A stretch of DNA of 64,000 nucleotides from a virus, in the IMG/VR virus record IMGVR_UViG_3300017991_000003, positions 129,019 through 193,018 of that record. One strand, 5' to 3'. Position numbers and translations under genes: made by a program. The notes beneath the pieces were generated by a model that did no database searches, had not been told where the DNA came from, and worked only from the letters and a program-made list of their open reading frames with translations. This document shows, piece after piece, positions 2,475-50,328 of the stretch (positions are counted from its first letter, which is position 1; each line of letters begins with the position of its first letter).

Positions 2475-2809
2475 AGGTGGTCGGGGTTCGGGACGGTGTT
2501 GGTGAGGAGGATGTGCATCCAGGTACGTAGGGACTGCCAGCAGGGGTCGATGTGCTTCCCTTGCTGTCTATCCCACGTCGCCAGGGCGTGGAGCGTGTTC
2601 ATCAGATTCATGGGAGGGCCCGGCAGGTACTCATCATCTTCGAGATGCTTGGGGCGCGCCCCCTCGACTAGGGCGTCGTAGCCCTTCTCGGTCACGAAGG
2701 TGATTTCTTGGAGGGCTACTCCCTCCCAGGTCTCGCCTCCGAAGTCGACCTGGACCGGGATGATCGGCGTACCCGGCTCGAGGTTTTGAAAGGTGAGGCT
2801 CATACCCAC
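2471..2809 (-). CDS. hypothetical protein (112 aa)
   Basis: Complete ORF; coupled by overlaps to both neighbours. Confidence 0.5.
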   Translation of the reverse strand: MGMSLTFQNLEPGTPIIPVQVDFGGETWEGVALQEITFVTEKGYDALVEGARPKHLEDDEYLPGPPMNLMNTLHALATWDRQQGKHIDPCWQSLRTWMHILLTNTVPNPDHL

Positions 2810-3339
2810 TTCTCCTCGATGAGCTTACGGAGGGCCTTCAGGCACATCCGCTGCCGACCGGCGGTCATACGCATCTTCGTGAATCGGTGACTATCGATCA
2901 ACCGATCAACAAGGATCAGGGCGAGGCCCTTGTTCTCGTCGCCCGCTTGAACAGGGATCGACATCTTCTTGGGCTTCTGCGCCTTCTTACGCCCTTTCTT
3001 GAGGGCCTTCACCGCAGCGGGCTCCGAGGCGTAGCGCATGGCGTGCTTGATGACCGGCCACTCGTCCGGGTGAGCTCCGACTTGCTGAGCCAGGCGTTTA
3101 CCAAGCTCGGTCAGCTCGCCACGGTCCCGGCCCACCGTACGCATCAGGCCCATGTTCTTGAGCTCGGCCTTGTAGGTTCCGACGGTCGACGCCTTGAGCA
3201 GCGTCTTACCAGTCCCGCGTGGGAACCGGCGTGTGATCTGAACGCAAGGCCATCGCTTGACCTGCTGCTGGTAGTGGTAGTAGAAGGCTAGCAGGTCCTG
3301 CTGCCGCTTGCTCAGCTCTCGGATTGTTTCGACAAGCAT
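2800..3339 (-). CDS. hypothetical basic protein, possible DNA-binding regulator
   Basis: Complete ORF. N-terminal LSKRQQDLLAFYY resembles the sigma-70 region-4 / LuxR-type HTH pattern; Lys/Arg-rich segment KKGRKKAQKPKK. First gene of the leftward operon. Confidence 0.45.
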   Translation of the reverse strand: MLVETIRELSKRQQDLLAFYYHYQQQVKRWPCVQITRRFPRGTGKTLLKASTVGTYKAELKNMGLMRTVGRDRGELTELGKRLAQQVGAHPDEWPVIKHAMRYASEPAAVKALKKGRKKAQKPKKMSIPVQAGDENKGLALILVDRLIDSHRFTKMRMTAGRQRMCLKALRKLIEEKWV

Positions 3340-3985
3340 GGGTAGGTGGTGGGGTAGAGGTGATCGACATGAGACTTATGCCACAGTCCCTGGTCTAAAA
3401 AGAGAGCCCAACCCGAGGGGGTTGAGCTCTCTGGAAGTGCCCGGGCCCGCCCCTTTCATCGCAGTCCAACGAGTGGGACAAGGGGGATGCCGTAAGGGCC
3501 CGGGCTTGTAGGTGCGGAGCCGTGCCAGGATCACGGCCCCGCGGTGCTGTGGAAGTAGCTTGGCCCCCCAAGGAGGTGGGATGAGCCGCCGTAGCTACGA
3601 TGAGGCTCGCAGTCGGGCATGGTGCTACCCGGCCAACAGCGTGGCGATACGCCGAGACCCGGATCGCCGCCGGATAAGGTGGCCCCCGTCGTGACGTGCT
3701 CAGCTCACGCTCGAGGGGTTGGAAGACCTGCCATCTAGGATCAGTGGGATCCCCATCCCTTTGCACTCCTCGGAGAGTGTGCCGCTCCTGCGGCTGATGT
3801 GATGGCAGGTGGAAGACACCCACAGGTAGCAAGAACCGGCCTGGATGACCTCTTCGTTGCCCTAGGACCGGGGTCAGAGCCTTCCGGGCGCGCCTGTGGG
3901 TGATTGGGAAAGCCGAGCACGTCATCAACGCCGCTTGTGCGTCTGCTTGGTTGGTGGAGACGTGTGACGCTGCTCGGCTTTTGTA

Positions 3986-4072
3986 TGGTGCAGGAAGGGG
4001 GACTCGAACCCCCACGCCCGGGTGGGCACGTGGACCTAAACCACGGGCGTCTACCGATTCCGCCACTCCTGC
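3986..4072 (-). tRNA. tRNA-Leu (anticodon TAG), CCA encoded
   Basis: Reverse complement reads GCAGGAGTGGCGGAATCGGTAGACGCCCGTGGTTTAGGTCCACGTGCCCACCCGGGCGTGGGGGTTCGAGTCCCCCTTCCTGCACCA. 7-bp acceptor stem with one G-U pair, anticodon loop TTTAGGT, long variable arm, T-loop GGGGGTTCGAGTCCCCC. Confidence 0.85.
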
Positions 4073-4146: not shown

Positions 4147-4232
4147 TGGTGCGGGAGGAGGGACTCGAACCCTCACGCCCGAAGGCAGTGGATTTTGAAT
4201 CCACCGTGTCTACCGATTCCAACCACCCCCGC
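4147..4232 (-). tRNA. tRNA-Leu (anticodon CAA), CCA encoded
   Basis: Reverse complement reads GCGGGGGTGGTTGGAATCGGTAGACACGGTGGATTCAAAATCCACTGCCTTCGGGCGTGAGGGTTCGAGTCCCTCCTCCCGCACCA. Anticodon loop TTCAAAA, long variable arm, canonical T-loop. Confidence 0.85.
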
Positions 4233-4446: not shown

Positions 4447-4475
4447 GGGCTGCCGAGGACGCGCCTCGACAGCCC
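4447..4475 (-). terminator. candidate terminator hairpin downstream of the leftward lipoprotein operon
   Basis: Nested inverted repeat GGGCTG-C-CGAGG-acgcg-CCTCG-A-CAGCCC about 12 nt past the stop of gene 4487..5107; no clean U-tract. Confidence 0.3.
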
Positions 4476-4486
4476 GTGGGGGATCA

Positions 4487-5107
4487 TCAGAAGTCGGGAC
4501 GCAGCGTGTCTGCCGCGATCAACGTCAACTCCGGAGCGGACGGAGCTCCGGTCACGACAGCCTGGGGATCCATCTGCGCCACGGAGTGCAGCTCGTGCGT
4601 CTCCATGAGTCTAAGTAGCGCAAAGAATCCGTAGGCGCGCAGCTCGTCCTCTTCTGAGTCGGAGCGCGGCGCGTGCCTGATGAGGGCCCCCGGGACGAGG
4701 TCTGCGTCGGACAGCACCACCCAGTGATCTGTCCAGACAATCGGCTCCAGTTGAGGAACCAGCTGCGAAGCCACCAGGTCGGCTAGCCCTTCACTCAGCG
4801 GGAAGGGACGCTGAGGAGCGCACAGGTGCGTAAGCTCATGTGCGATCACGAAGCGCTGCCGGTACGGCGGCTGATCAAGCCAGTTCGGATGGAGCACGAG
4901 GTAGACCTCGTCCGCGGCATGGGCCACCAGAGCAAGCCTGTCGATCTCACTCGACACGCACACCTGGGGGACCACACCTCGGTCATGCCCGATCATCTGC
5001 ACCACCTGTGGACGCAGTTCATCGAGCAGACCCTCAGCACGCTCGACGGCTGGGTGAGCGCTGGCGCAGGCAGCCAGCGGCAGGCAGGAGATGATCAAGG
5101 ACTTCAC
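4487..5107 (-). CDS. putative lipoprotein with HExxH zinc-metallopeptidase motif
   Basis: GTG start at 5107 (GTGA overlap with upstream stop) gives VKSLIISCLPLAAC with a lipobox-like LAAC; HELTH motif in FVIAHELTHLC. The longer track ORF 4487..5257 has an Arg-rich N-terminus that looks spurious. Confidence 0.55.
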   Translation of the reverse strand: MKSLIISCLPLAACASAHPAVERAEGLLDELRPQVVQMIGHDRGVVPQVCVSSEIDRLALVAHAADEVYLVLHPNWLDQPPYRQRFVIAHELTHLCAPQRPFPLSEGLADLVASQLVPQLEPIVWTDHWVVLSDADLVPGALIRHAPRSDSEEDELRAYGFFALLRLMETHELHSVAQMDPQAVVTGAPSAPELTLIAADTLRPDF

Positions 5108-6006
5108 GGGATCGGAACCCCCTGCTTCTCGATGGTCAGCGGGGTCACGAACCGCTCGCCCTGCGCGTACTGCATCAGGTCGAAGCGGATGCTCTCGAGC
5201 AGTCCCTCGCTGCCGAGGGGTAGGAGGCCGGCGTCGATGACGACCTCGCTGCCCCACAGCGCGGAGCCGGCCCGGGTCTTGGACCAGGCCAGGGCGTGCT
5301 GGCTGCCGTCTTGGTAGCCGAGGCTACCGCTGGCGACCATGTCGGAGCTGTCGTTCAGCGCCCGGATCAGGAGCTTGCCCTGCCCGTGGTCGACGTAGGC
5401 GGTGACGGTGTAGGCCCAGAGAACGTCGTCGATCAGCTGGTTGATGGCCCAGTCCTCGCCGCCTGTGAGGTACCAGGCCTGCACGATGGCGTGGGCCTCG
5501 ACCTCGCTGGCGGCGGTCACCAGGAACTCACCGTAGGCGTCCATGTCGTCCTGGTGGTCGTAGGCGTCCACGGACGTCAAGGAGACCAGGAACTGCTGGA
5601 GCTCGTGGGGCTTGCTGAGATCGATGATCACCTGGTTGCCGCCGAGGGGACCGGACGTGGGTCGGCCGACGAGCTCGAGCTGCTGGGTCGCGTCGGCCAA
5701 GGTGCCTGAGAAGGTGGTGACCACGGAGCCCTCCGGAAGGAGGACCGCCGTACCGGGGGCGTACACCCCGGCGTAGCGGGCGCCGGACTTGGTGATGACC
5801 TCGACCCGGAGGTTGGTCGGGATGTCGGCCGGCACGTCACCTTGGAGGGTGCCGTCACCCTTCTTCTCCAGGCTGGCTTCCCAGCCCGAGAGCTGGACGG
5901 TGATGCCGTCACCCTCTTCGAGGTCGAGGACTTCCTCAGTCGCCGTACAGGCGACGAAGCTGAACATCAGCAGGATGAGGAGGATGAACGTGTGTTGGAT
6001 GCGCAT
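5104..6006 (-). CDS. putative secreted lipoprotein (301 aa)
   Basis: Internal ATG at 6006 gives MRIQHTFILLILLMFSFVACTATEE, a signal-peptide-like hydrophobic stretch ending in a lipobox-like VAC. The upstream 35 aa of the track ORF are not signal-like. Confidence 0.55.
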   Translation of the reverse strand: MRIQHTFILLILLMFSFVACTATEEVLDLEEGDGITVQLSGWEASLEKKGDGTLQGDVPADIPTNLRVEVITKSGARYAGVYAPGTAVLLPEGSVVTTFSGTLADATQQLELVGRPTSGPLGGNQVIIDLSKPHELQQFLVSLTSVDAYDHQDDMDAYGEFLVTAASEVEAHAIVQAWYLTGGEDWAINQLIDDVLWAYTVTAYVDHGQGKLLIRALNDSSDMVASGSLGYQDGSQHALAWSKTRAGSALWGSEVVIDAGLLPLGSEGLLESIRFDLMQYAQGERFVTPLTIEKQGVPIP

Positions 6007-6091
6007 GGCGTCTCCTGTTGGGTTGGGTGGGAACAGTGGAGGCTCGAAGCCTCGGGGTATCAGTAGACTCGTGACACAAACCCGATAAGGT

Positions 6092-6532
6092 TTACAGCGA
6101 ATCCAGGGCATCTAGGGCGTCTGTGAGGCCCTCAGCAGCCTCTTGAGCAGCGTCCGCCTTGGCGCTCTTCTTCCGCTTCTTCCCCTTCTTCTTGTGATGC
6201 AGGGCGGCCAGGCGAGCCCCCTGCTCCCGCTGAGCGTCCGTCACGGACTCCTCGCATAGGGTCTTGTACTCCGCCTCGGTGGGGATGACGCCCTCGGGTC
6301 GCGTCTTGGTGTCCGCGTAGGGGCGGTGGGCCCAGAAGAAGCAGACGTGGTCCGGGCAGTTCTTGATGGCGTCCCGGTAGCCCTCGTTGCCGACACAGGC
6401 TCGGCAGTTGAGGTCGACAGCGGATCGGAGGCTGCTACCGTGATCAGCTTTGACGGCGACGGTGGGGCGGGCGAGGCGGACGTCGTTCTCGACGCAATCG
6501 ATGATGTCAGGCTTGGTGGTCATGTGTGGCAC
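6092..6532 (-). CDS. hypothetical Cys-rich basic protein (146 aa)
   Basis: Complete ORF; six Cys including CRAC and CPDHVC; Lys-rich HHKKKGKKRKKSAK near the C-terminus suggests nucleic-acid binding. Divergent from the rightward operon starting at 6608. Confidence 0.5.
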   Translation of the reverse strand: MPHMTTKPDIIDCVENDVRLARPTVAVKADHGSSLRSAVDLNCRACVGNEGYRDAIKNCPDHVCFFWAHRPYADTKTRPEGVIPTEAEYKTLCEESVTDAQREQGARLAALHHKKKGKKRKKSAKADAAQEAAEGLTDALDALDSL

Positions 6533-6607: not shown

Positions 6608-7123
6608 ATGGAAACGACAACGACAGAGGCCCGCCCTGAGCTACAGCTTCGGCCGTTGGCCGGGCGGGTGATGATTCGAGTGGACGAGGCCCCCACGATG
6701 AGCGCAGGTACGCGAGGCCGTCAGGTCTATCTACCCGAGAGCGTCCAGAAGGAGGAGAAGGCGAACTACCGGTTCGGTACGGTCGTGGCCCTAGGGGACC
6801 CCGCGCTGCATCCGAAGACCGGCAGGCCGATCCCGTGGGCTGTGCATGTAGGCACCAAGGTCTGCTTCCAGTTCGGGGCTGACCTTACAGGTGAGCGAGA
6901 GCTCCAGTACACAGGAGGCGTGGCCCATGCGGTGTGCTTTGCTGAGGATCTGATTTACGCCATCGAGGATGATTATGAGATTCAGCCGACTCCCGTATGC
7001 CCCAACAGCGTAGGGGTTGCGCTACGCCGCGCTCTGATGAACGACGACTGGCTGACCGAGGAGCAGGTTGACACCCTGAGCCGGCGGCTCGCGTGCACGA
7101 TTGCCGGGGTTGTGCCCGCGTGA
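6608..7123 (+). CDS. GroES-like co-chaperonin (Cpn10 family) with C-terminal extension
   Basis: ATG at 6608; LRPLAGRVMIRVDEAPTMSAG...FGTVVALGDPA...PWAVHVGTKVCF...AEDLIYAIED aligns by eye with GroES (IRPLHDRVIVKR..TKSAGGIVL..GEVLAVGNG..VKVGDIVIF..ESDILAIVE). Confidence 0.6.
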   Translation: METTTTEARPELQLRPLAGRVMIRVDEAPTMSAGTRGRQVYLPESVQKEEKANYRFGTVVALGDPALHPKTGRPIPWAVHVGTKVCFQFGADLTGERELQYTGGVAHAVCFAEDLIYAIEDDYEIQPTPVCPNSVGVALRRALMNDDWLTEEQVDTLSRRLACTIAGVVPA

Positions 7124-7758
7124 GAATCGGCCGCACTTCCGATCTAGCGCCCTGGCCGCTCTTCATCGGCTTCTACACCCCGGAGTACGAGGAAGAGGCC
7201 GGGGAGCTTCGTAAGACCCTGGACGCGTTCGGGCTGCCACACGAGATCGAACCCGTCGAGTCCACGGGTAGCTGGTGGCTCAACACGCAGATCAAGGCTC
7301 AGATCATTTTGCTCAAGCTACGGGATCACCTGGGTCGACCGCTGGTCTACCTGGACTGCGATGCCCGAGTCAGGCAGGCTCCTACCTTGTTCCGCTCCCT
7401 GCATCACCAGTGCGACTTCGCGGCTCACTTCCGACCGGATCGACGATTCGAATGCGGTCGAGAGCTTTTGAGCGGGACGCTGTACTTCAGCGGCTCGCCG
7501 GCTTGCCAGGGCCTGGTACAGGCTTGGATCGATGAGAATGAGCGCCAGGCTGCGATCAAGAGTAGCAACAAGCTCCGCCTCATGGATCAGAGAACCTTGC
7601 AGACGGTCCTGGCTAAGGAGATCGAGGAGTACGGTCTTATGTTCACCGAGCTCCCTGCTACCTACGTTCAGATCTTCGACATCATGCGCGACGCCGGCGA
7701 CCCGGTGATCGAGCATCTCCAGGCCAGCCGCCGATTGAGGAACAAGGTTGGTCACTAG
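7120..7758 (+). CDS. putative glycosyltransferase (nucleotide-diphospho-sugar transferase-like, GT-A fold)
   Basis: GTG at 7120 overlaps the upstream TGA (alternative GTG at 7093). LVYLDCDARV and overall pattern resemble DxD-type sugar transferases; weak. Confidence 0.4.
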   Translation: MRIGRTSDLAPWPLFIGFYTPEYEEEAGELRKTLDAFGLPHEIEPVESTGSWWLNTQIKAQIILLKLRDHLGRPLVYLDCDARVRQAPTLFRSLHHQCDFAAHFRPDRRFECGRELLSGTLYFSGSPACQGLVQAWIDENERQAAIKSSNKLRLMDQRTLQTVLAKEIEEYGLMFTELPATYVQIFDIMRDAGDPVIEHLQASRRLRNKVGH

Positions 7759-7770
7759 ACTCATGACTCA

Positions 7771-8529
7771 ATGAAGCGACTGATCTACCAGGTCTGCGTT
7801 GGCCCGCCTGACCCGCTCTACGACAAGTGCACGCGCACTGTTGCGGCCTACTGCAAGCGCCTCGGCATCGCGTACATCAAGCAGACCGAGCCGGTCCTGA
7901 AGATCCGCCCGAACCCCGCTACGAGCGGGAGAAGCCAGAACGCTGTTGAACGACTAGGGTACCTGCCGATCTTCGAGAAGGAGAACGCACTCGCCCACCT
8001 TGGTGAGTTCGATCAGGTGGCCATTATCGACTCCGATATCTGGATCAGGGAGGAGGCACCCAACATCTTCGAGGAGCTCGAGGAGGGTGTTGACTTCATG
8101 GGGGTGGTCGAGCGAACCGCACCCATCACGCCGCAGTATGATCGGAAGCTCAAGAGCTACGCGCGCGGCCAGTACGGTCGTCCGGACTTCCCCTTCATGA
8201 ACATGGGGCTCATGCTCATGAACAAGAGCCTGCGCCGCTTCTGCCCCGAGCCTCCTCGGGAGTTTCTGGCGCGTCCGGAGTTCCAGGCCTTCGTGGATGG
8301 GCGGGGGGCCTACAAGTGGAGCACGGACCAGACCCTGCTCAACACCTGGTTGACCAGCGATCCCGACATGGTCGTGAAGCCTCTCGACTGGCGGTGGAAC
8401 GCCCTGTACGGGGCGCTGGTGCCCGGGTCGATAGAACAGGCCCACTTCGTTCACTTCTTCCTCAAGAACCACCTGGATAGCCAGGATCCCGACAAGCTCC
8501 TTCAGACACAAGGCCGCAAACGCGTTTAG
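7771..8529 (+). CDS. glycosyltransferase family 8-like protein
   Basis: AIIDSDIWI (DxD), FMNMGLMLMN, STDQTLLNTWL and HFVHFFLK match the order of conserved GT8 motifs. Confidence 0.55.
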   Translation: MKRLIYQVCVGPPDPLYDKCTRTVAAYCKRLGIAYIKQTEPVLKIRPNPATSGRSQNAVERLGYLPIFEKENALAHLGEFDQVAIIDSDIWIREEAPNIFEELEEGVDFMGVVERTAPITPQYDRKLKSYARGQYGRPDFPFMNMGLMLMNKSLRRFCPEPPREFLARPEFQAFVDGRGAYKWSTDQTLLNTWLTSDPDMVVKPLDWRWNALYGALVPGSIEQAHFVHFFLKNHLDSQDPDKLLQTQGRKRV

Positions 8530-8533
8530 CCCC

Positions 8534-9211
8534 ATGAGCAAAGTACCACCCCTATTCATTCACGTACCGAAGACCGGTGGCATGTCCGTGCACCATGGAC
8601 TAGGCCGCCTGATCCGAGAGACGCTGTCTCGAGACAAGCTGAAGTCTCTGGACTACGCGGCGACGATCGAGCAGCACATGCGCTCCAAGGGTGAGCCTAC
8701 TCCGGGGTACCGTCATGCCCGGTGGCGTGACGTCAAGCCGGGGTGGCGGGATAAGGGCCGCTGTTTCACGGTGCTGCGCAATCCGTGGTCCCGTGTGGTC
8801 AGTCGCTACCGGTTCGGACTCAATACCTGGGCGACGCGTCCCTACAACTACACGAACTTCGAGGAGTTTCTTGCGGAGCATGAGGAGTGGGGCCAAGAGC
8901 CGTACTACTGGCACCGCGCCGTGCGGGGCTGGTACCCTGCGGTGGATCACGTGACGGACGGCCAGGGCAACCTCAAGTGCGATGTTCTGCGTACGGAGCA
9001 CCTGGACGATGACATCTGGGCCTACTTCGGGAAGCGGCTACCTCCGCGCCGACGCAACGTCACGCGCGGCGATGCCGTGGACTACAAGACCTTCTACGAC
9101 GATCGAACCATCCAGCTGGTGGCAGACTGGTATGCCGAGGACATTGAGATGTTCGGCTTTGACTTCGACACGCCGGCGACGAAGAACCTGTGGGAGGGCC
9201 TAGGAGCATGA
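8534..9211 (+). CDS. sulfotransferase (PAPS-dependent, carbohydrate sulfotransferase-like)
   Basis: N-terminal LFIHVPKTGGMSV matches the 5'-phosphosulfate-binding motif (PKTGTT-like); TVLRNPWSRVVSRY matches the 3'-phosphate-binding motif (RDPxxRxxS). Confidence 0.65.
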   Translation: MSKVPPLFIHVPKTGGMSVHHGLGRLIRETLSRDKLKSLDYAATIEQHMRSKGEPTPGYRHARWRDVKPGWRDKGRCFTVLRNPWSRVVSRYRFGLNTWATRPYNYTNFEEFLAEHEEWGQEPYYWHRAVRGWYPAVDHVTDGQGNLKCDVLRTEHLDDDIWAYFGKRLPPRRRNVTRGDAVDYKTFYDDRTIQLVADWYAEDIEMFGFDFDTPATKNLWEGLGA

Positions 9212-9765
9212 TGGTTGGCAAGAACCAGGGCAGTCTCCTGGTTGTGCAGCAGATCCCAGAGAACAGCGTGGGTGCCGAGCTCGGCGTCTGGCGCGGGGAC
9301 ACATCAGCCCGCTTCCTAGCTAGCGGTAAGATCAAGCACTTGCACCTGGTGGATGCTTGGAGTCCCGACCCTTACTACGGCATCGAAGGCTACCGAGAGA
9401 AGTACGCCAAGCTGGTCGGATCGGGTGATCTCGACGCCTTTCGCGCCTACTACGACGCGGTCCTAGCCGGTGTCCGCAGGCGGTTTCAAGGCCAGCCCGT
9501 TACGATCCACCAAACCACTGTGCACGAGTTTCTGACTGAGCCCCCGGAGGATCTCGACTGGGTCTACGTGGACGCGAGTCACGAGTACCTCGACGTCCTT
9601 GATGATCTCGAGCGCTGTGCCCGTCACGTGGATCTGATCTTTGGGGATGACTACGGCAACAAGCCAGGGGTGGTTCGCGCTGTCGACGAGTTTGATCGGA
9701 CGCACCCCGAGTGGCACCTCCAGGTCCTGGGCAAGAACCAGTACCGCCTCGATAGGAAGGTCTGA
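9208..9765 (+). CDS. class I SAM-dependent methyltransferase (O-methyltransferase, Methyltransf_24-like)
   Basis: ATG at 9208 overlaps upstream TGA (ATGA). GAELGVWRGDTS glycine-rich motif, VDAW, DLDWVYVDASHEY and GDDY resemble the TylF/MycF-type fold. Confidence 0.55.
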   Translation: MMVGKNQGSLLVVQQIPENSVGAELGVWRGDTSARFLASGKIKHLHLVDAWSPDPYYGIEGYREKYAKLVGSGDLDAFRAYYDAVLAGVRRRFQGQPVTIHQTTVHEFLTEPPEDLDWVYVDASHEYLDVLDDLERCARHVDLIFGDDYGNKPGVVRAVDEFDRTHPEWHLQVLGKNQYRLDRKV

Positions 9766-10271
9766 TGCACCCATCAAGCAAGGCCAATATGAGGGAGGCC
9801 TGGGCACTCGTTCCCGACCCCCACCGCGTCGGGGACGTCCTTGATGTAGGCGGCGGTCGTGGCGGGGAATACCAGGAAATCTGGAAAGGGTGTGCTAGCT
9901 ACCGAACGGCTGACATTGCAGGTGACTGCGACCTCTTGATGCCTGGTGAGTACGAGATTCCACTTCCGGATGATTCGATCGATGTGGTGATTAGCGGCCA
10001 GACACTGGAGCATGTCCGCAACCCTTTCCGCCTCGTCACCGAGATGCGCCGGGTACTGAAGCCCGGTGGCTACGTGGTGATCATCGCCCCGTCCGCGGGC
10101 CCGGCCCATTTCAAGATCGACTGCTGGCGCTTCGTCCGGGATGCGTTCCGGGCCATCGCCCACGAGTGCGATCTAGAGGTTGTTGCCGATTGGATCTATA
10201 CCGGGGACTCTGGCCGAGGTCCTAACAAGCAGTGGAACGATCACACCTTCGTGGGGAGGAAGCCCGAGTGA
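9765..10271 (+). CDS. class I SAM-dependent methyltransferase (Methyltransf_11-like)
   Basis: VLDVGGGRG (motif I), DVVISGQTLEHV and LKPGGYVVI (motif III-like); 1-nt overlap with upstream stop. Confidence 0.6.
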   Translation: MHPSSKANMREAWALVPDPHRVGDVLDVGGGRGGEYQEIWKGCASYRTADIAGDCDLLMPGEYEIPLPDDSIDVVISGQTLEHVRNPFRLVTEMRRVLKPGGYVVIIAPSAGPAHFKIDCWRFVRDAFRAIAHECDLEVVADWIYTGDSGRGPNKQWNDHTFVGRKPE

Positions 10272-10969
10272 ATGCGTATGCCATCACGCTCTTCGGTAAC
10301 GAGACCAGCACCCAGAGCGTTGACAAGCTCTTTGAGTCCCATGTGGCGCTTGAGCAGCATTTCGATCTGATCCGCTTCCCGGCCATCACTCCTGACCAGA
10401 ACCAGGAGATCATGGCGGAGGAGCGCCTGGTGTGGACCTATCCCTGGGAAAACAACCGGCTGGATGGGATCACTGGCTTGAAGCTGCATCCCTACGCCAC
10501 ACGTGATCGGGGTGCGCGGATCGCCTGCTTCCTATCGCACTACCACCTCTGGAAGCTGGCCTGCGAGACTGGGGAGTGGGTGATGATCCTGGAGGACGAC
10601 ACGGTATTCACCAAGCACCTAGACCTAGACAGCCTGCCTTACCGTGAGTGGAGCGCCGTCGGCATCAACAACCCACTAGGGGCGACGCGTCGAGCGCCTG
10701 TGTTCCACGACAAGGTCGTGGCGCAGCGTCCGACTCCGATCATCGAGACCCCGTGGGTTGATGATGAAGTCAGGACCCCGCAGGGGCTGGCCGGCCACAG
10801 TGCCTACATGATCAGCCCTGAGCTGGCTAAGGACCTGATCCATCGAGCCCGTCATGCGGGTTGCTGGCCTAACGACGCATTGATGTGCAAGCAGCTGTAC
10901 CCTGGGAAGCTCGGGGTCACAACCGAGTTCTACACCCGAGTCCAGCAGACCCCGAGTACTCTGGCATGA
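10268..10969 (+). CDS. glycosyltransferase family 25-like protein
   Basis: GTG at 10268 (GTGA overlap). AYAITLFGNETS, IACFLSHYHLWKLA and VMILEDDTVF match GT25 (LPS/LOS glycosyltransferase) signature order. Confidence 0.55.
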   Translation: MNAYAITLFGNETSTQSVDKLFESHVALEQHFDLIRFPAITPDQNQEIMAEERLVWTYPWENNRLDGITGLKLHPYATRDRGARIACFLSHYHLWKLACETGEWVMILEDDTVFTKHLDLDSLPYREWSAVGINNPLGATRRAPVFHDKVVAQRPTPIIETPWVDDEVRTPQGLAGHSAYMISPELAKDLIHRARHAGCWPNDALMCKQLYPGKLGVTTEFYTRVQQTPSTLA

Positions 10970-11628
10970 AGGCGCGCGTCATCACCCTGATCCACAACAA
11001 GCGATCTGTTCAGGTAGCGAATCGGTGCATTGAGAGCGCTGCAAGGTTCGGCGTTGAGGTTGATATCTTCCCGGCCATCAGGGCGGCGGATAACCCCAAG
11101 GCCCTGATGTTCGAGCGGAAGTTCTCGATGAAGGGGTTTGAGGACAATGAGTACTCGCGTCTTGAGCCGTGCCTGGCTACGTTCCTCTCCCACTCTCGCC
11201 TATGGGAGCTTGCGGTGCTGCTAAAGGAGGCAGTCCTGATCCTCGAGCACGACGCTGTGTTCCAGGCTCCGCTCCCGGAGATGATCGAGGAGCGGGTGAA
11301 GATGCTCTGCAATCTGGGCAAACCGAGCTTCGGCTCCTTCAAGACCCCGAAAGAGGGGCTAGGCCCGTTCGTGTCCAAGCCCGGCGGCTATCTAGGCGGC
11401 GCCCACGCGTACCTGGTCCAGCCTGAGGCCGCTGAGGTGATGTTGGAGAAGGCCAAGACAGAGGCGGAGCCGGCCGATGTGTTCATCCAGAAGAAGCGCT
11501 TCCCCTGGATGACTGAGTACTACCCGTGGCCGGTGATCTGCGATGACTCCTTCTCCACCATCCAGAAGCCCGCAGGTTGCACGGCCAAGCACAACAAGGT
11601 CGAGATCATCGATCAGGATGAATCGTGA
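10966..11628 (+). CDS. glycosyltransferase family 25-like protein (second copy, divergent)
   Basis: ATG at 10966 (ATGA overlap). MKARVITLIHNKRS, ATFLSHSRLWELA and VLILEHDAVF mirror the GT25 pattern of the adjacent gene. Confidence 0.55.
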   Translation: MKARVITLIHNKRSVQVANRCIESAARFGVEVDIFPAIRAADNPKALMFERKFSMKGFEDNEYSRLEPCLATFLSHSRLWELAVLLKEAVLILEHDAVFQAPLPEMIEERVKMLCNLGKPSFGSFKTPKEGLGPFVSKPGGYLGGAHAYLVQPEAAEVMLEKAKTEAEPADVFIQKKRFPWMTEYYPWPVICDDSFSTIQKPAGCTAKHNKVEIIDQDES

Positions 11629-31941: not shown

Positions 31942-34029
31942 TTGTCAACATTCCTATACGACCTTCTAGGCATGGTTCCTGGCCGACTCGGTGTCTATAA
32001 TCCGTTGAGCCTGCGCACCTTAGACCCGGAGCACGCAAACAAGATGGCGGCCGAAACTCCGAATAGGTTCAGTGTCCCAGTTGAGACGCTGATCCTTCAA
32101 CTGCTCGAGGAGCAGCACCCTCAACTACATGTCGCCCCCGGGTCGGCTACCTATGACACCCTCGTCACCCCGATGGCGTTGGTGCTTCAGCCGTTCCGCG
32201 ACTACCTGCGCGTGATTCAGAGGAACCAGAGCCTCAAGAACGCGCAGACCATGCTGCCCGAGGAGCTGGACCGCCTGGCCAGTAACTTCCTGGTCGACCG
32301 TCGCCAAGGTACCAAGGCACTCGGGGTTCAGCGGGTGCTTTTCCCCACGCTCCAGCAGGTGTCCGTGCCGGCTTCCGCGCGCTTCACGGACGACAACGGC
32401 AACAGGTACCAGCCGGTGACCTCGGTTCAGGTGAGCACCACCACCTTGGCTAATAACGTGGTGGCTGCTACCGGGGAGTACTACGTGGATGTCCCGGTCA
32501 TCGCTGAGCAGCCTGGGGAGGGCAGCGCCGCCCTCGCCGGGGCTGTGACCCAGTTCAGCGGTATTCCCGGAGCGGCACGTACGTTCAACGCGTCTGACTA
32601 CTTCCAGGGCTCGGCTGGCGAGAGCAACAGCCAGCTCGTGGCCCGCATCAAGAGCAGTGTGGCTAACCGAGAGCTGGTCAAGGCCGCCTCGATCGAAGCC
32701 CTCCTGCTTGAGACTTTCCCCAGCATCAGGGACCTGGCTGTCCGGGGCTATGGGGATAGTCTGATGACCCGCGATACGGTGGATGTGGTCCTGGCCAGCC
32801 ACAAGCTGTTCGAGCAGAGCTTTGCCCAGAAGGTGAACCTACCTCTGGACTCTGAGGGCGAGGTTCAGTGGATCACGGACGCTGGAGAGGAGATCACGGC
32901 CCCCATCGGCGGGTTCGTGGGCGCTGTCTACGACCTGACGGGTAAGGACTTCAACGCCCTCAACGTCACCTTGGACGGCCAGATCTACGAGGTCGTGAGT
33001 GCCCAGCCGGGCAACAAGCTCCGCTTCCTGAACTCGGACGACCCCGACGCGGTCAACAACGATTACCGCATCACCCGCGTCGAGGAGGTGCCTGTGGCCC
33101 CCGGCGGGGACGCTGTGAAGGTCTTGCGGCTCGATCGAGCGCTCTCTGATACCGCTGAGGTCGACGTCTCCACCAATCTCGACAGCGTGCCGTATACCGT
33201 GATCGGCCGGTTCAATACCAGCCGCTTCCATGTGGGCGGTAAGGTGGATGTCTACGTGGACTCCACAGCTGATATCGAGCAGACGGTCACGGTCAGCAAC
33301 CTACCCGCGGTCAACGACCAGACCCTGGATGTGGGCGAGATCCCGCTGACTCAGAGCTTCATCAACGACAACGGCGCCAACCTTTTCGAAGGTAACACAG
33401 GCTTTACAGCTCCGGTAATCGCTGTGACCAAGGTCGAGCAGCTGGATCCCACCAACAGCAGCGTAGTGATTCGGGAGCTCACCCCTGACGTCCACTACGT
33501 CCAGGTCACCGCAGCGAGCCGCGGCCGCTTCACGCAGGCCACCAACGACGTACTGGTCATCCGAGGTACCGAGGTTGACCCAGTCACCGGCGAGGAGGTC
33601 CCTCTCTTCGTGGGGCAGCGGCTCAAGGTCACCTACATCACCAACCCGGACATTCCTTTGATTCAGGACTTCGTAGATGCCTCGGATCAGAGGGACTTGA
33701 CCAAGGACATTCAGATCCTCACGCCGACCGTGGTGCTCTTGAATCTGGATCTTGAGTACGCAGGTACCTTGCCTGTGGGTGATGTTCAGACGATCATCAG
33801 GGAGTACATCGAATCCAAGGGCCTCGGCGCCTCGGTCTCGGTGAACGAGATCGTCACGGTCCTCTCTTACTTCGGGGTTACGGACGTCACCATGCCGGTA
33901 CGCCTACGCAGCCGACAGGCCACAGGAAGCGGCTCCTTCACTTTCAACGAGAGCGAGGATCGCCTCTCCGTCGACAGCAACTCGGTGTTCGTGCCTGACT
34001 CGGGCCTGAACATCACCAAGGTCGGGTAA
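31942..34029 (+). CDS. structural protein (695 aa), possibly baseplate or tail component
   Basis: Complete ORF at the head of the long rightward structural operon; beta-rich composition; no specific motif verified. Confidence 0.5.
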   Translation: MSTFLYDLLGMVPGRLGVYNPLSLRTLDPEHANKMAAETPNRFSVPVETLILQLLEEQHPQLHVAPGSATYDTLVTPMALVLQPFRDYLRVIQRNQSLKNAQTMLPEELDRLASNFLVDRRQGTKALGVQRVLFPTLQQVSVPASARFTDDNGNRYQPVTSVQVSTTTLANNVVAATGEYYVDVPVIAEQPGEGSAALAGAVTQFSGIPGAARTFNASDYFQGSAGESNSQLVARIKSSVANRELVKAASIEALLLETFPSIRDLAVRGYGDSLMTRDTVDVVLASHKLFEQSFAQKVNLPLDSEGEVQWITDAGEEITAPIGGFVGAVYDLTGKDFNALNVTLDGQIYEVVSAQPGNKLRFLNSDDPDAVNNDYRITRVEEVPVAPGGDAVKVLRLDRALSDTAEVDVSTNLDSVPYTVIGRFNTSRFHVGGKVDVYVDSTADIEQTVTVSNLPAVNDQTLDVGEIPLTQSFINDNGANLFEGNTGFTAPVIAVTKVEQLDPTNSSVVIRELTPDVHYVQVTAASRGRFTQATNDVLVIRGTEVDPVTGEEVPLFVGQRLKVTYITNPDIPLIQDFVDASDQRDLTKDIQILTPTVVLLNLDLEYAGTLPVGDVQTIIREYIESKGLGASVSVNEIVTVLSYFGVTDVTMPVRLRSRQATGSGSFTFNESEDRLSVDSNSVFVPDSGLNITKVG

Positions 34030-34035
34030 CCCTAC

Positions 34036-37000
34036 ATGACTTCGGACAAGGTCTTTCAGTCGGACTCGCTCTTCGACTACCTCCCCAGCTACTGGAAGAG
34101 CTCGTTCGGCGACCGCCCGGTCCTCGAGACGGTCTACGAGGCCCTCGTGCGGTCCATGGACGTGGACTGGGTGCGCCTATTCGCTGCTAACGACACGCGC
34201 GAGCTCGCCACCACTCCTGTCACCACCACCCACACGCTAGTCCACCAGCCTCTGGGCAGCTGGACGAGCCTAGAGGTGGCTCACGGTCACTACCATACGT
34301 GGCTGGACTGGCCGGCGGCCACTGGGAGCCCCGAGACCTATGTGATTCGACTGGAGGACCACGTCCTCACGCGTCCGCGGCTGTTCTTCGACGGCCGGGC
34401 CATCCCCAGCTTCCTCTATCGCCTGGATACGAGCCACTGGTCTAGTGGCGGCTCGGTGGTCTACGGCACCACCATCACGTTCGACAAGGCTCAGCTCGAT
34501 TCCTTCCTCGACGGTAGCTATCTGAGCCTGCAAGGCCAGTCAGGCGAGAATACGAGCCAGGAGTGGACCCCTGCTGATGTCATCGAGCGGCTCGGGATCC
34601 TCGCCTACAGGGATCAGCGCCCCTTCACGGGGTCTGGAGACGCCTCCACCACCGCGTTTGAGTTCACGATCGGAGGGTCCGCGGCTGTCGTAGAGGCTTT
34701 TGACGCAATGGCTTACGTCGAGAGCATCGACGTCACAAGCCGTGTCACGGTCGCCGCCGTTACAGGCGGTTTCAGCATCACTCCCAAGCCCGCAGGCGGC
34801 TTTGGGGCCGGGATGCTGCTTCAAGCCACGTTTGACGACGACTCCCAGCAGCTCGTTGAGCTCGACAGCGGTACCGGTTCTGTGACACTACGAACCAGTG
34901 CCAGCTCCGTGACTGGGGTTCGGCTCTTCGTGAACATCCCCCTGGGGGAGCAGCACTACACCGTCACCTCGAGCGCTGTTGAGCTGCTCGGTGGCGCTGT
35001 GTTCCCTGGCGGTACGATCCTCAGAGTCAAGGACGCCAAGGGCATCCAGTCCAAGACGCTCACCGAGCCGCGCTCCCGGGTCACCTTTGACCGGGACATC
35101 GACACCAACAGCGCTCAGGTCCTCTACCAGGGCACCGATGTGCTCGCCACCGAGGTCTCGACCAGCGGCATCACCTTCGAGCGCCCCCTCAATAGCGGCG
35201 CCCGATGGCGTGTGGATGCTCCTGTGGTGGTGGATCACGACCACGCCCTCTACCGCACAGCTACGGACGGTACGGCCAACATCGCTATCCCCACGGCCCG
35301 CCCGCTGACACTGGCAGGCAGTGCCACAGATGAGGATTACCCCATCCTCCTGTTCGTGGACGGCGTGCTTCAGGACCCGAGCACCTACAGTCCCAGCTCC
35401 ACGGTCAACCTGGTCCTCCAGTCGCCGCTCCCCTCGGGAATCCCAGTGGATGTGTGGTACGTGGACCAGGAGGAGCCGGCTGAGCACCTGCACAGCGAGC
35501 TCAGTGATGTGGTCCCCCTCTCGGTCCCCGAGCAGTACAGCGTCAGCTACAGTCAGGCTGAGACCTTCGACGACACCACCTGGCCCCTCACGGTCTTCAG
35601 GGACGGCTTCCTGGAGAACGACCCTGACCAGATCCGCACGGTCGACGGCCAGTTCCTTCAGTTCACTGACGCGCTGACCCCGGGCATCAGGGTGGCGGCC
35701 GACGGTCTGCGCACAGAGTTCCGGTACGCCCACACCATCCCCCATAGGGAGGACCTGGACTACGGCTACCGTGGGGACATCCAGGAGATCGGCACGCTCC
35801 AGGACGGGGTGATGAGCCCCAGCTCGGTCAAGAGCCCGGACACCGGCTTCAGCCTCACCCCAGCGGCCAGCCCGGCTGAGACAGCTACCCTCAAGGCGTC
35901 CATCACCTGGGACGAGGCGTGGCTAACCGGTGTGAAGGTGGATGAGCACCTGCTCGAGACCACCTGGGGTGATCCTGTGGGTATCAAGCGACCGGTCAGC
36001 TCGACCCGCTACCGCAACCTGCTCATGGCTGTGTACGCAGCCTACCGCGGCCCCAGCTTCGTCGACAGCCTCGTCAACGTCAGCTCTATCCTCCTAGGCT
36101 CGGCCTTCCTACCCACCGCTGGCGTGAGTGGGGGCATCACGCGCTCCTCCACCGGCGTCCAAGTCCTCATCGAGCCCACGGACCCCAAGGAGAGCCCGTA
36201 CACCGTTGACCTGCTCCCTGGTGAGGAGCATCGCATCCTGCCGGCTCCCCGTGAGATGTCTCGGCTCCGCGCGGTCAACAGCCTCGCCACTGTTAGTGAC
36301 CGTAGTCTGGACGACATCCCCTGGCTCGCCTTCATGGCCCAGGACGTGGCTGAGGACTACTCGTACGCCAAGCGGCTGGATGTCAGGAGCTCGAGCAGCT
36401 TCAGCAGCATCCCGGCCGGCTACGACAAGACCACCGGCCACCTCACCGACTACAGCGTCAACTACAACGACCAAGAGGTGTGGGTCGGTGATCTCATCAA
36501 GCTGACACTGGTTGCCAGTGCCAGTCCCACGTCTATCATTCAAACCTACACGAGTGATGGCACGTCTCCTCAACAGGTGCAGCGGCTCGTCTACGACTCG
36601 AGCCAACCGACAGCCCGCCTCAGGGCGCATGTCGCCTCACCGGCGGTAAGTACTTACAAACCCGGCCATTACGTCAATCTAGAGGGTGCTGGGAGCCCCT
36701 GGGACACCCTCACCGGCGAGTACTACCAGCTCACCAACGTCAGCCCCGGCTACGCAGCTAGCACTACCAGGCTCACGGCTGAGTGGATCAGCAGTCACGC
36801 TGCTCCCACCATCACGGCTGTCGACTACACGGCGTCTCCTTATCCCGAGCTCCAAGGCTACAACCTCAGCCAGAGCACGAGCACGCCTGACTTCCAGTCC
36901 TACACGCAGTTCACCACGGTGCAGGAGGTCCTCGGGGATCACACCATCCGGGTGAGCTTCGACGCTACCAGTGAGGTCACCGGCTACGGCGATGAGACTT

Positions 37001-49611: not shown

Positions 49612-50328
49612 ATGTGCGACGTCATCGCCCCTCTTGGAGTCAGCCTGTTCTTGATGACGGCTGCTTTCATCTATGCTGTTTTTCAGAACAAGAAACTACG
49701 GCAGGCTCCAAGGTGCATATTCCCCTCGTCGGCCTGCCCGCATGACGGTCACAAGAACAAGGTGATGCGTGAGAAGGCCGTGGCCTTCGAGGCCGCTTTC
49801 AACAACGCGGCACACGGCATGGCGGTCGTCGACATCGACGGGAGCTGGGTACGCGTGAACGATGCCCTTATCGACATGCTTGGGTACACGCGAGAGGAGC
49901 TCGTGTCCGGGATGACGTTCCAAGACGTCACGCATCCGGACGATCTCGACAAAGACCTGAAGCTGATGCAAAAGCTCCAGGACGGTCATATTCGGAAGTA
50001 TCACCTGGCCAAGAGGTACATCCGCAAGGACGCTCACGTGATCTACATCATGCTGTCCGTCAGCCTGATCCGTAACCTGAGTGATCATCCGCTGTTCTAT
50101 GTCTCGCAGATTATCGAGCGCACCGCAGACCAGGTGGAGCTCGATCGACTGCGGGAAGAGGCCCGCCGGTGGCGTTCTGAGGCGCTTTTGTGGGAGCAGC
50201 GCCTAGAGTCTACCCGGCAGCGCCATAACGAGGCGTTGGATCGGCTGATCCAGCCCTCGAGTGCTCCCTCCGTCGAAGAGCCGAGCACGTCTCAGCCGTC
50301 CACTAAGCCGCACCAGGATCATGACTAA
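49612..50328 (+). CDS. membrane-anchored PAS-domain protein with C-terminal coiled coil (238 aa)
   Basis: N-terminal hydrophobic helix (APLGVSLFLMTAAFIYAVF); PAS-like core FEAAFNNAAHGMAVVDIDGSWVRVNDALIDMLGYTREELVSGMTFQDVTHPDD...KDAHVIYIMLSVSLI...FYVSQIIERT; 5' region looks lower in GC than neighbours by eye. Confidence 0.6.
   Translation: MCDVIAPLGVSLFLMTAAFIYAVFQNKKLRQAPRCIFPSSACPHDGHKNKVMREKAVAFEAAFNNAAHGMAVVDIDGSWVRVNDALIDMLGYTREELVSGMTFQDVTHPDDLDKDLKLMQKLQDGHIRKYHLAKRYIRKDAHVIYIMLSVSLIRNLSDHPLFYVSQIIERTADQVELDRLREEARRWRSEALLWEQRLESTRQRHNEALDRLIQPSSAPSVEEPSTSQPSTKPHQDHD

Follow-up and report, generated by a model that had tools for sequence, protein, structure and literature searches.

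The 64,000-nucleotide stretch of viral DNA analysed here (the window) carries a pair of adjacent genes, A and B, which probably form a moron-like, envelope-acting cassette of a likely tailed phage, B being a lipid-anchored gluzincin and A an accessory lipoprotein. During infection, the cassette would most plausibly remodel or degrade host envelope proteins. This reading builds on the gene structure, lipobox patterns, family conservation, predicted fold, conserved pairing and mobility obtained here, from which we infer lipidation, zinc binding, proteolysis, an envelope target and the biological role of the two proteins.

A preliminary description of the region had reported two coupled leftward genes, both with lipoprotein-type signal peptides and the downstream one with an HELTH motif. 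These features are all present, the gene limits being exact to the base, and both genes were also called by the JGI gene caller on the source contig. The elements of the transcription unit are:

5104-6006, minus strand: gene A, 300 aa, start ATG at 6006 and stop TGA at 5104
4487-5107, minus strand: gene B, 206 aa, start GTG at 5107 and stop TGA at 4487, a predicted lipoprotein and gluzincin-type zinc metallopeptidase (sequence and model)
6011-6016, minus strand: Shine-Dalgarno-like AGGAGA, 4 nt 5' of the gene A ATG, read directly from the sequence
5104-5107, minus strand: GTGA, 4 nt shared by the end of A and the beginning of B, indicating translational coupling

An RTGA stop/start overlap joins A and B in 9/9 distinct cassettes and would allow A to be made in fixed proportion with B. 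All nine distinct homologous loci keep both lipobox cysteines, the HExxH motif and the 4-nt overlap at protein identities of only 28-41%, and these features are therefore more than chance. The earlier view of a coupled lipoprotein gene pair is thus upheld among homologues, for the overlap and for the lipoboxes alike.

Bacterial lipoproteins, the substrates of Lgt and LspA, have a basic n-region, a hydrophobic h-region and a lipobox ([LVI][ASTVI][GAS]C) with its cysteine near position 15-35; the PROSITE-type and G+LPP-type patterns were applied in their generally known form. The N-termini of both products conform to this layout:

5947-6006, minus strand: signal peptide of A, lipobox F-V-A-C, Cys20 at 5947-5949 (pattern match)
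5066-5107, minus strand: signal peptide of B, lipobox L-A-A-C, Cys14 at 5066-5068 (pattern match and family conservation)

The gene A product begins with MRIQHTFILLILLMFSFVAC, Cys20 included, and matches the PROSITE-type pattern; the gene B product begins with (M)KSLIISCLPLAAC, has Lys2 and Cys14, and matches the relaxed G+LPP pattern. Every homologue of A and B with an intact N-terminus matches at least one lipobox pattern. The B signal peptides are short throughout the family, 12-15 residues preceding the cysteine (Cys at 13-16). The lipobox cysteine of A is invariant (alignment A3), and the mature N-terminus that it opens is conserved as C(T/S)(A/S)x(E/G/Q)(E/Q/L/H)(I/V)(P/L). The sole hydrophobic segment of each protein is the N-terminal one, and the mature proteins are acidic. 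By these features A and B both qualify as putative bacterial lipoproteins: they would be exported and lipid-anchored through the N-terminal lipobox cysteine and, being so anchored, would both face the periplasm or cell envelope.

The data support B as a genuine HExxH metallopeptidase of an undescribed family, for which zinc binding and proteolysis are predicted. Three elements would make up its active site:

4826-4840, minus strand: HELTH, residues 90-94, with H90 and H94 as putative zinc ligands and E91 as putative catalytic base, invariant in alignment A1, on predicted helix 81-96
4778-4795, minus strand: SEGLAD, with E106 (4790-4792) as putative third zinc ligand, E106, L108 and A109 being invariant, on helix 102-116
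4724-4726, minus strand: His128, invariant in alignment A1, a candidate transition-state-stabilising residue by analogy

Zinc would be held by H90 and H94 of HELTH and by E106 of SEGLAD, with E91 activating the water; the role of His128 would be analogous to that of His231 of thermolysin. SEGLAD is similar to NEGFA/EGxA, a motif found in M1 and M9 gluzincins. Word-indexed protein searches with A and B returned self matches only, so that an exhaustive phmmer search was needed to find the relatives of B: eight clear full-length proteins and a multi-repeat protein (P0011). Across nine sequences, H90, E91, H94, P98, E106, L108, A109, P118, H128, R157 and A158 are invariant. An HExxH motif followed by a glutamate on the next predicted helix is the signature of gluzincins (clan MA(E)), and B has both. 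Eight cassette-linked members were checked and have 11-12 residues between the two, and P0010 has 13; to our knowledge this gap is shorter than in known gluzincins (18 or more for M1 and M4). The structure of B is predicted with confidence and has a gluzincin fold with the two subdomains of thermolysin-like enzymes, a beta-sheet with the active-site helix followed by a helical lower subdomain. The BFVD fold search found no close viral structural relative, and the PADLOC search gave only HExxH-level matches.

The invariant catalytic residues and the confident model bear out the earlier assignment of the downstream gene to the HExxH metallopeptidases; a signal peptide and a metallopeptidase fold, whose absence had been named as grounds for dropping the proposal, are both predicted. 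The families then suggested, M48 and DUF4344, did not hold: close members have no M48 match, and DUF4344 was matched by 1/9 members (E 0.14). Membership of peptidase family M1 was likewise rejected. M1 enzymes carry a GxMEN exopeptidase motif, are spaced as HExxH-x18-E, and have a beta domain N-terminal and a helical domain C-terminal to the catalytic one; no member of the B family has GxMEN, and B consists of the catalytic domain only, with a gap of 11-13 residues and no Peptidase_M1 match. B would be a minimal gluzincin zinc metallopeptidase of ~190 residues and, because the M1 exopeptidase motif and flanking domains are missing, its likeliest chemistry is that of an endo- or oligopeptidase acting on envelope polypeptides.

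Protein A has a beta-rich N-terminal and a C-terminal domain, joined by a variable Gly-rich linker, and has no match in Pfam, PHROG, NCBIfam, PADLOC or PDB; its single-sequence AlphaFold model is poor (pLDDT 44). Its homologues adjoin those of B directly upstream in other loci, at 32-36% identity. The mature N-terminus is the best-conserved linear segment of the A family, and one locus, L007, keeps A as a 37-aa remnant corresponding to this part. A homologue or remnant of A lies directly upstream of B in 9/9 distinct loci found, which include related phage-like contigs and bacterial chromosomal contigs. A has decayed beside an intact B in three lineages, one of which (L010/L011/L021) occupies apparently bacterial chromosomal contexts. 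We picture A as accessory to B, whether as modulator, adaptor or substrate, and not as an obligatory subunit. The chromosomal copies of the pair adjoin housekeeping genes and, as the pair also occurs in bacterial chromosomes, its role need not be phage-specific.

Two further elements bracket the pair in the window and in several other loci, though not in all:

6065-6078, minus strand: conserved 14-nt motif TGTGTCACGAGTCT (consensus TRTGKCAYRAGTCT), 59 nt 5' of the start of gene A, a candidate phage promoter/operator
4447-4475, minus strand: 12-bp GC-rich hairpin, then ACCUUUCA, directly after the B stop, terminator-like, fold energy -24.7 kcal/mol

The 14 nt recur exactly before A in L007, L017/L019 and L010/L011/L021; in the window they occur a second time, again exactly, at 3372-3385, and further copies precede other genes in L007 and L017. 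The motif contains TGGCAC, but a sigma-54 promoter was rejected, the -12 element of the generally known consensus being absent or mis-spaced. Equivalent hairpins follow B in L010, L007 and L017. The cassette is mobile: the same 1,828 bp, at 99.8% identity, are found in two contigs whose flanks differ on both sides. Comparison of synonymous and non-synonymous changes between the near-identical copies was uninformative because of too few differences. Phage morons have their own promoter and terminator around one or more accessory genes and a patchy distribution through horizontal transfer. The cassette may be of this kind: a recurrent upstream motif and a downstream hairpin, as candidate promoter and terminator, bracket its genes, and copies 99.8% identical are found in two contexts. 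We propose a self-contained unit, running from the upstream motif through gene A and gene B to the terminator-like hairpin, that would be moron-like and common to a clade of large phages and to bacterial chromosomes.

A scan of GTDB genomes gave a single match, in Roseateles, which is spurious (antisense inside an outer-membrane protein gene); a metagenome scan added one new short locus only, and IMG/VR contained no relative of A or B. Window positions 3395-3985, downstream of the tRNAs, are not conserved in relatives and match nothing in Rfam.

That the genes are phage-encoded, as first assumed, is favoured by a baseplate-wedge PHROG match (E 1.4e-17), by synteny of the window with contigs carrying Acb2/Tad1, DNA_pol_B_exo2 and CI-repressor-like genes, and by the tRNAs in the window; against it stands the lack of a similar known phage. 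No similar phage was found in GenBank or IMG/VR, and GenBank phages gave no DNA match and no protein match for B, the baseplate-like gene or a conserved neighbour. Judging from sequence, the source genome is probably that of a large, very divergent tailed phage with few and weak hallmarks.

Several more specific roles must be weighed. In a protease-inhibitor (immunity-like) pair, the lipid-anchored A would silence B in the producing cell, in the manner of the Tpi immunity proteins of T6SS periplasmic metallopeptidase toxins or of TIMP-like metzincin partners. The invariant A-B juxtaposition and stop/start coupling, which imply a fixed A:B stoichiometry, agree with this, as do the lipobox patterns, which would direct both proteins to the same compartment, and adjacent envelope-targeted neutralisers of periplasmic metallopeptidases have been published (PMC6899460). 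We nevertheless hold it unlikely: A has decayed with an intact B in three lineages, one of them in chromosomal contexts, where an uninhibited toxic protease should be counter-selected, and A is larger than B, has two domains and resembles no known inhibitor. A might also be a substrate, B cutting the tether after the lipid anchor (C-T/S-A/S-x-E-x-I-P-D-L) and freeing the domains of A from the membrane. Cleavage of a lipoprotein partner by a phage-origin metalloprotease is known (PMC8235301), and the strong conservation of the mature N-terminus, which is the part kept in the L007 remnant, fits such a cut. This seems quite unlikely to us: it is reached by deduction throughout, the L007 N-terminus may reflect a deletion endpoint and the need for translation up to the B start, and the conservation of B where A has decayed means that A is not its only substrate. 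The preliminary description put forward superinfection exclusion or cleavage of a surface receptor or matrix protein. In the form weighed here, the anchored protease would destroy or trim such a protein and so block superinfection or keep progeny from being trapped on debris. This role is compatible with the predicted envelope location and peptidase chemistry and with a moron-like cassette bearing its own upstream motif and hairpin, an arrangement typical of lysogenic- or lytic-conversion genes. It is also unlikely, as neither protein has homology to Llp, Cor, Ltp or Sie, Pfam, PHROGs and PADLOC gave nothing beyond the HExxH helix, and the chromosomal copies beside housekeeping genes point to a broader role in the envelope.

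A lysis accessory is a very unlikely option, in which B would cut outer membrane-peptidoglycan tethers or other scaffolds and replace or assist spanins. B is a predicted envelope lipoprotein, and the Listeria protease/lipoprotein pair of phage origin enhances lysis (PMC8235301). However, no holin or endolysin was identified nearby, neither A nor B has a C-terminal membrane segment or a spanin-like architecture, and the cassette sits among early-looking small genes and tRNAs. Spanins are either a small o-spanin lipoprotein, paired with or embedded in an i-spanin that has its membrane helix at the N-terminus, or a u-spanin, in which this helix is C-terminal; A and B, at 300 and 206 aa, have no hydrophobic segment beyond the signal peptide, and B has an enzyme fold, so that spanin identity was rejected. 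Finally, B scored 22.1 bits against Pfam Peptidase_M78 (PF06114), just over the cut-off of 22, and had weak capP and PHROG regulator matches, as might a cytoplasmic ImmA/IrrE-type (M78) regulatory protease with a fortuitous signal peptide. We rejected this extremely unlikely assignment: the 22.1 bits come from 19 residues of a 123-position profile, B has a lipoprotein signal, no IrrE/ImmA structure ranks among its top fold matches and no XRE-type neighbour is present.

We therefore retain the moron-like, envelope-acting cassette as the best explanation. Should this be confirmed, B would be the first of a new family of minimal gluzincins with a lipid anchor, in which the M1/thermolysin core is cut to ~190 residues with a compressed zinc-binding motif, and A would be a lipoprotein family without a known fold. 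The pair would be a compact, experimentally tractable envelope-acting accessory module of very large uncultivated phages, and its sharing with bacterial chromosomes could help to link these phages to hosts. It has no bearing on a major open question, and phage-borne metallopeptidases and lipoproteins are each common singly. It is tempting, if rather a long shot, to imagine a mobile, phage-spread envelope-remodelling module in which B recognises the A tether (C-T/S-x-x-E-x-I-P-D-L) as a substrate or pseudo-substrate, thereby freeing or gating A, and cuts proteins of the host envelope as well. Were this true, it would define a new peptidase family, marked by a zinc site (HExxH-x11-13-E) that is unusually short, together with a new lipoprotein fold, and give a direct example of the exchange of a near-identical cassette between a large phage and the chromosome of its host.

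Among known enzymes, B is nearest to the catalytic (thermolysin-like) domain of M1 aminopeptidases and to other clan MA(E) gluzincins, namely M30 lugdulysin/hyicolysin, M9 collagenase and M4 thermolysin, but identity to the M1, M30, M9 and M4 enzymes is 9-19% only and B has no Pfam match to these families. Unlike the M1 enzymes, B, at ~190 residues, has neither the N-terminal beta domain nor the C-terminal domain and is predicted to be lipid-anchored. Minimal scaffolds of the minigluzincin or M48-M56-like kind have a catalytic domain of ~100-110 residues and are closest to M48 and M56. The minigluzincins (selecase MJ1213, projannalysin and proabylysin) are soluble archaeal proteins of ~105-110 residues and align with the N-terminal half of B only (~90 residues), whereas B has an extra helical subdomain of ~90 residues with the invariant H128, R157 and A158. 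The superinfection-exclusion lipoproteins T5 Llp, Cor and Ltp are phage-encoded envelope proteins from accessory units; they act by binding, not catalysis, and neither A nor B resembles them in sequence or domains.

Two-gene systems offer further parallels. Tpe/Tpi (the VgrG2b C-terminal domain and PA0261) pairs a T6SS periplasmic metallopeptidase with an adjacent envelope-targeted immunity protein (PMC6899460). As in A-B, the zinc metallopeptidase Tpe always lies beside the gene of a partner that is targeted to the envelope and, in some species, is a lipoprotein (PMC6899460). Tpe is, however, delivered by the T6SS as a VgrG fusion, not as a lipoprotein, and no homology to it was detected; in A-B, the partner gene is upstream, A is larger than the protease and A has been lost repeatedly. 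In Listeria, Mtz/Tim combines a phage-derived metzincin with a TIMP-like lipoprotein that the protease cleaves, and its action sensitises the wall to lysis (PMC8235301). Mtz is a metzincin and B a gluzincin, with no sequence relationship; Mtz is secreted, in a Gram-positive host, whereas B is predicted to be lipid-anchored. The function of Mtz/Tim was shown by experiment, that of A-B being predicted here from sequence and model. The likeness lies in the design: both would be two-gene units of phage origin in which an exported zinc metalloprotease and a lipoprotein partner act on the envelope.

Two minus-strand ORFs fill the interval 4487-6006 exactly, and JGI gene calling on the 38-kb and 193-kb source contigs gave the same pair:

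6006 (ATG) to 5104 (TGA), minus strand: gene A, 300 aa; AGGAGA stands 4 nt before its start codon
5107 (GTG) to 4487 (TGA), minus strand: gene B, 206 aa

The stop codon of A and the start codon of B overlap as GTGA. The N-termini of A (MRIQHTFILLILLMFSFVAC) and B ((M)KSLIISCLPLAAC) each show a basic residue 2, then a hydrophobic stretch and a lipobox cysteine; this is the only hydrophobic segment of either protein, and both mature proteins are acidic. HELTH occupies residues 90-94 of B. Given the ORF coordinates, the lipobox N-termini and the motif, the preliminary description of two coupled leftward genes with lipoprotein-type signal peptides, the downstream one carrying HELTH, is therefore confirmed as written.

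The family libraries recognise only the HExxH helix of B: Pfam Peptidase_M78 reaches 22.1 bits over just 19 residues, the weak PHROGs and PADLOC matches fall on the same helix, and NCBIfam gives no match. A word-indexed search of 5.8 billion proteins returned B itself only, while phmmer, run exhaustively on 1.84 billion cluster representatives, recovered nine proteins besides B. Eight are clear, full-length relatives (29-41% identity); the ninth, a multi-repeat, M48-like protein, matches B around the motif only. The alignment of B and the eight relatives yields 14 invariant positions (A59, H90, E91, L92, H94, P98, E106, L108, A109, P118, H128, L142, R157 and A158) and the signature HExxH-x3-P-x7/9-E-G-L-A-(D/N). 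An EG(L/F)A motif with the third zinc ligand is a hallmark of M1 and M9 gluzincins. The spacing is tighter in the B family, with HExxH and the Glu 11-12 residues apart in the eight cassette-linked members and 13 in the relative P0010. More distant B-like lipoproteins (P0012-16), with HELVH and EEGLADY, occur in bacteria.

An AlphaFold2 model of B built from this small alignment is confident (pLDDT 90.9, pTM 0.87) and shows, after an N-terminal helix, three strands followed by the HExxH helix (81-96), the Glu helix (102-116) and lastly a helical subdomain. Its fold matches were ERAP1 (M1; score 11.3, 175 residues aligned), other M1 enzymes (8.5-11.1), lugdulysin (M30; 10.7), collagenase (M9; 9.7), thermolysin (M4; 8.0) and minigluzincins (6.2-7.5). 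Foldseek returned the same families with weak E-values, the top PDB sequence-profile match was the minigluzincin selecase (E 0.04), and BFVD held no close viral structure. Assignment to M1 was rejected (GxMEN and the flanking domains are absent and the spacing is wrong), as was M78, which gave no meaningful match. With both memberships failing, B was therefore filed as a new sequence family with a gluzincin fold. The metallopeptidase reading of the downstream gene is thus borne out by the invariant residues and the confident model: B is a real metallopeptidase of an undescribed family, predicted to bind zinc and to be catalytic, and most likely an endo- or oligopeptidase.

A, in turn, matched nothing in Pfam, PHROG, NCBIfam, PADLOC or the PDB, singly or as a five-member profile. 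On the contigs carrying B relatives (L handles below), an A homologue or its remnant lies directly upstream of every close B homologue, with 32-36% identity (E 2e-41 for the L002/L004 copy) and an RTGA overlap of A stop and B start in every close case. Nine distinct cassettes can be told apart: window/L001, L002-4/L022, L007-9, L010/L011, L021 (a near-identical variant of the preceding one), L012, L013/14, L016 and L017-20. In the A family the lipobox Cys is invariant and the mature N-terminus is conserved as C(T/S)(A/S)x(E/G/Q)(E/Q/L/H)(I/V)(P/L); the members also share a beta-rich N-terminal domain, a Gly-rich linker whose length varies, and a C-terminal domain that is likewise conserved. 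One of P0012-16 also has an upstream lipoprotein, whose N-terminal domain is weakly A-like (hhalign probability 73%); BLASTP detected no similarity of this lipoprotein to A.

The cassette is bordered in the window by the following features:

6092-6532, minus strand: 143-146-aa protein gene just upstream of A
6065-6078, minus strand: 14-nt motif TRTGKCAYRAGTCT
4447-4475: GC hairpin directly after the B stop
3986-4072 and 4147-4232, minus strand: two tRNA-Leu downstream of the cassette, anticodons UAG and CAA
3395-3432: strong intrinsic terminator (-25.5 kcal/mol, z -5.7)
3372-3385, minus strand: second exact TRTGKCAYRAGTCT, ahead of gene 2800-3339

The motif precedes A by 40-60 nt in the window, L007, L017/19 and L010/11/21 and is absent from L012 and L013. 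Like the window, L007 (7819-7832, 10071-10084) and L017 (6940-6953, 8887-8900) have a second exact copy preceding another gene; L010 has it at 5022-5035. In the window and related contigs every copy is in coding-strand orientation and 30-60 nt ahead of a gene start, and it occurs in phage-like relatives as well as upstream of the cassette in bacterial-context contigs; chance would give an estimated 0.015 or so exact matches per 64 kb. It was read as a putative promoter or operator of the phage; a sigma-54 promoter was rejected, as the spacing does not fit. The hairpin (12-13 bp, with a short U-rich tract) recurs after B in L010, L007 and L017. The leftward unit may read on through both tRNA-Leu genes and would then end at the terminator. 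The stretch 3395-3985 (~590 nt), which ends at this terminator, may be non-coding: its sole long ORF is an Arg/Pro-rich frame (a JGI-called 177-aa gene) for which the syntenic relatives have no homologue and Rfam no match. The 6092-6532 protein is Cys-rich (C-x2-C ... C-x4-C, zinc-ribbon-like) with a Lys-rich tail and no family match; a homologue (44% identity) is present in L007 and absent from L017.

L010 (4996-6823) and L011 (959-2786) share 1,828 bp at 99.8% identity, comprising the motif, A, B, the hairpin and a tRNA, with different flanks on both sides. In L010 these are dnaX-ybaB-recR-rpoN-truA (left) and an integrase-core (rve_3) gene (right); in L011, a homologue of the window Cpn10-like gene (45% identity) and hpf-ptsN-HPr-pilM...secretin. 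Such a segment points to a mobile cassette, to a prophage junction, or to assembly chimeras formed at a repeat that phage and host share. This leaves two readings: the cassette is present both in the chromosome of a bacterium and in a related phage or prophage, or a common repeat has made the assemblies chimeric. Each of the two would mean that a diderm bacterium and a phage related to that of the window exchanged sequence not long ago. The tRNA directly after B (L010 6696-6779, L011 2659-2742, L021 1701-1784; Rfam 55 bits) has, according to ARAGORN, a CUA (amber-reading) anticodon and could be a suppressor; its anticodon arm holds 14 nt against 7 expected and may contain an extended stem or mini-intron.

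The window is densely coded (63.5% GC) and consists almost entirely of ORFans, large ones including 3,406, 1,512, 1,410 and 1,262 aa. Landmarks outside the cassette are:

6698-7123, plus strand: Cpn10/GroES-like gene (Pfam E 6.6e-6), divergent from the operon
7093-11628, plus strand: two unassigned, one sulfotransferase-like, two SAM methyltransferase and two glycosyltransferase-25-like genes
31942-44256, plus strand: baseplate-wedge match (phrog_6, E 1.4e-17), directly followed by the 3,406-aa ORF
49612-50328, plus strand: clear PAS domain (Pfam E 8e-11) in a 238-aa protein, unusual for a phage-like genome

The 3,406-aa ORF, matched by no family other than IPT/TIG at a sub-threshold score, presumably encodes a giant tail fibre or a protein for host recognition. 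DUF5661 and the two tRNAs were also counted as phage evidence. Synteny extends to L007 (145 kb) and L017 (119 kb) at 40-80% protein identity; these contigs carry DUF7694, DNA_pol_B_exo2/RNase H-like, Acb2/Tad1-hairpin (an anti-CBASS/Thoeris sponge family; L017 15358-15609) and weak CI-repressor-like genes. No GenBank phage or IMG/VR contig resembled any gene tested, and the identity of the window as a phage is therefore probable, not proven. The Cpn10-like gene is kept in L007 and L017 (55-61% identity) and adjoins the cassette in L011; the plus-strand block beyond it is also syntenic in L007 and L017 and may serve as a module for glycan or surface modification.

A is apparently damaged in three lineages where B is intact with all its catalytic residues. 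In L007-9 an in-frame 37-codon remnant survives (signal peptide, CSSTQEIPPLPEG..., ...IP stop), still overlapping the B start. In L002-4 no start codon precedes the A lipobox, and a transposase-like ORF ending in ...NGYHNRARFRDAIMFHLGGLDLYP (L002 1-135, at the contig edge) runs right up to the truncated 5' end of A. In L010/L011/L021 the signal-peptide coding region is kept with no ATG, GTG or TTG before it. By this pattern A is dispensable and B not. Retention of the short in-frame ORF in L007 is compatible with a need for translational coupling; a function of the tether peptide could explain it just as well.

The identity of the two products is held with high confidence and any particular target of B with little. 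In the best-supported reading, A and B would be exported and lipid-anchored, B as an active zinc peptidase on the periplasmic or envelope side and A as an accessory partner co-produced with it, in a moron-like module through which the phage, or a bacterium carrying the cassette, would cut envelope polypeptides. A could instead be an inhibitor or immunity protein of B, for which Tpe/Tpi is a precedent (PMC6899460), or a substrate released by B, as in Listeria Mtz/Tim (PMC8235301). The decay of A beside intact B in three lineages disfavours A as an essential antidote in bacteria, as the sole substrate and as an obligatory subunit. Receptor destruction for superinfection exclusion, proposed in the preliminary description, and an accessory role in lysis are further rivals. 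A cytoplasmic ImmA/IrrE-type protease was rejected.

The general kind, a lipoprotein zinc metallopeptidase as an accessory phage gene, is familiar. In the libraries and literature searched, four things appear undescribed: the B sequence family, a bare M1/thermolysin-like core with a compressed HExxH-x11-13-E site, a partner lipoprotein that is conserved yet dispensable, and the phage-to-bacterium distribution of the cassette.
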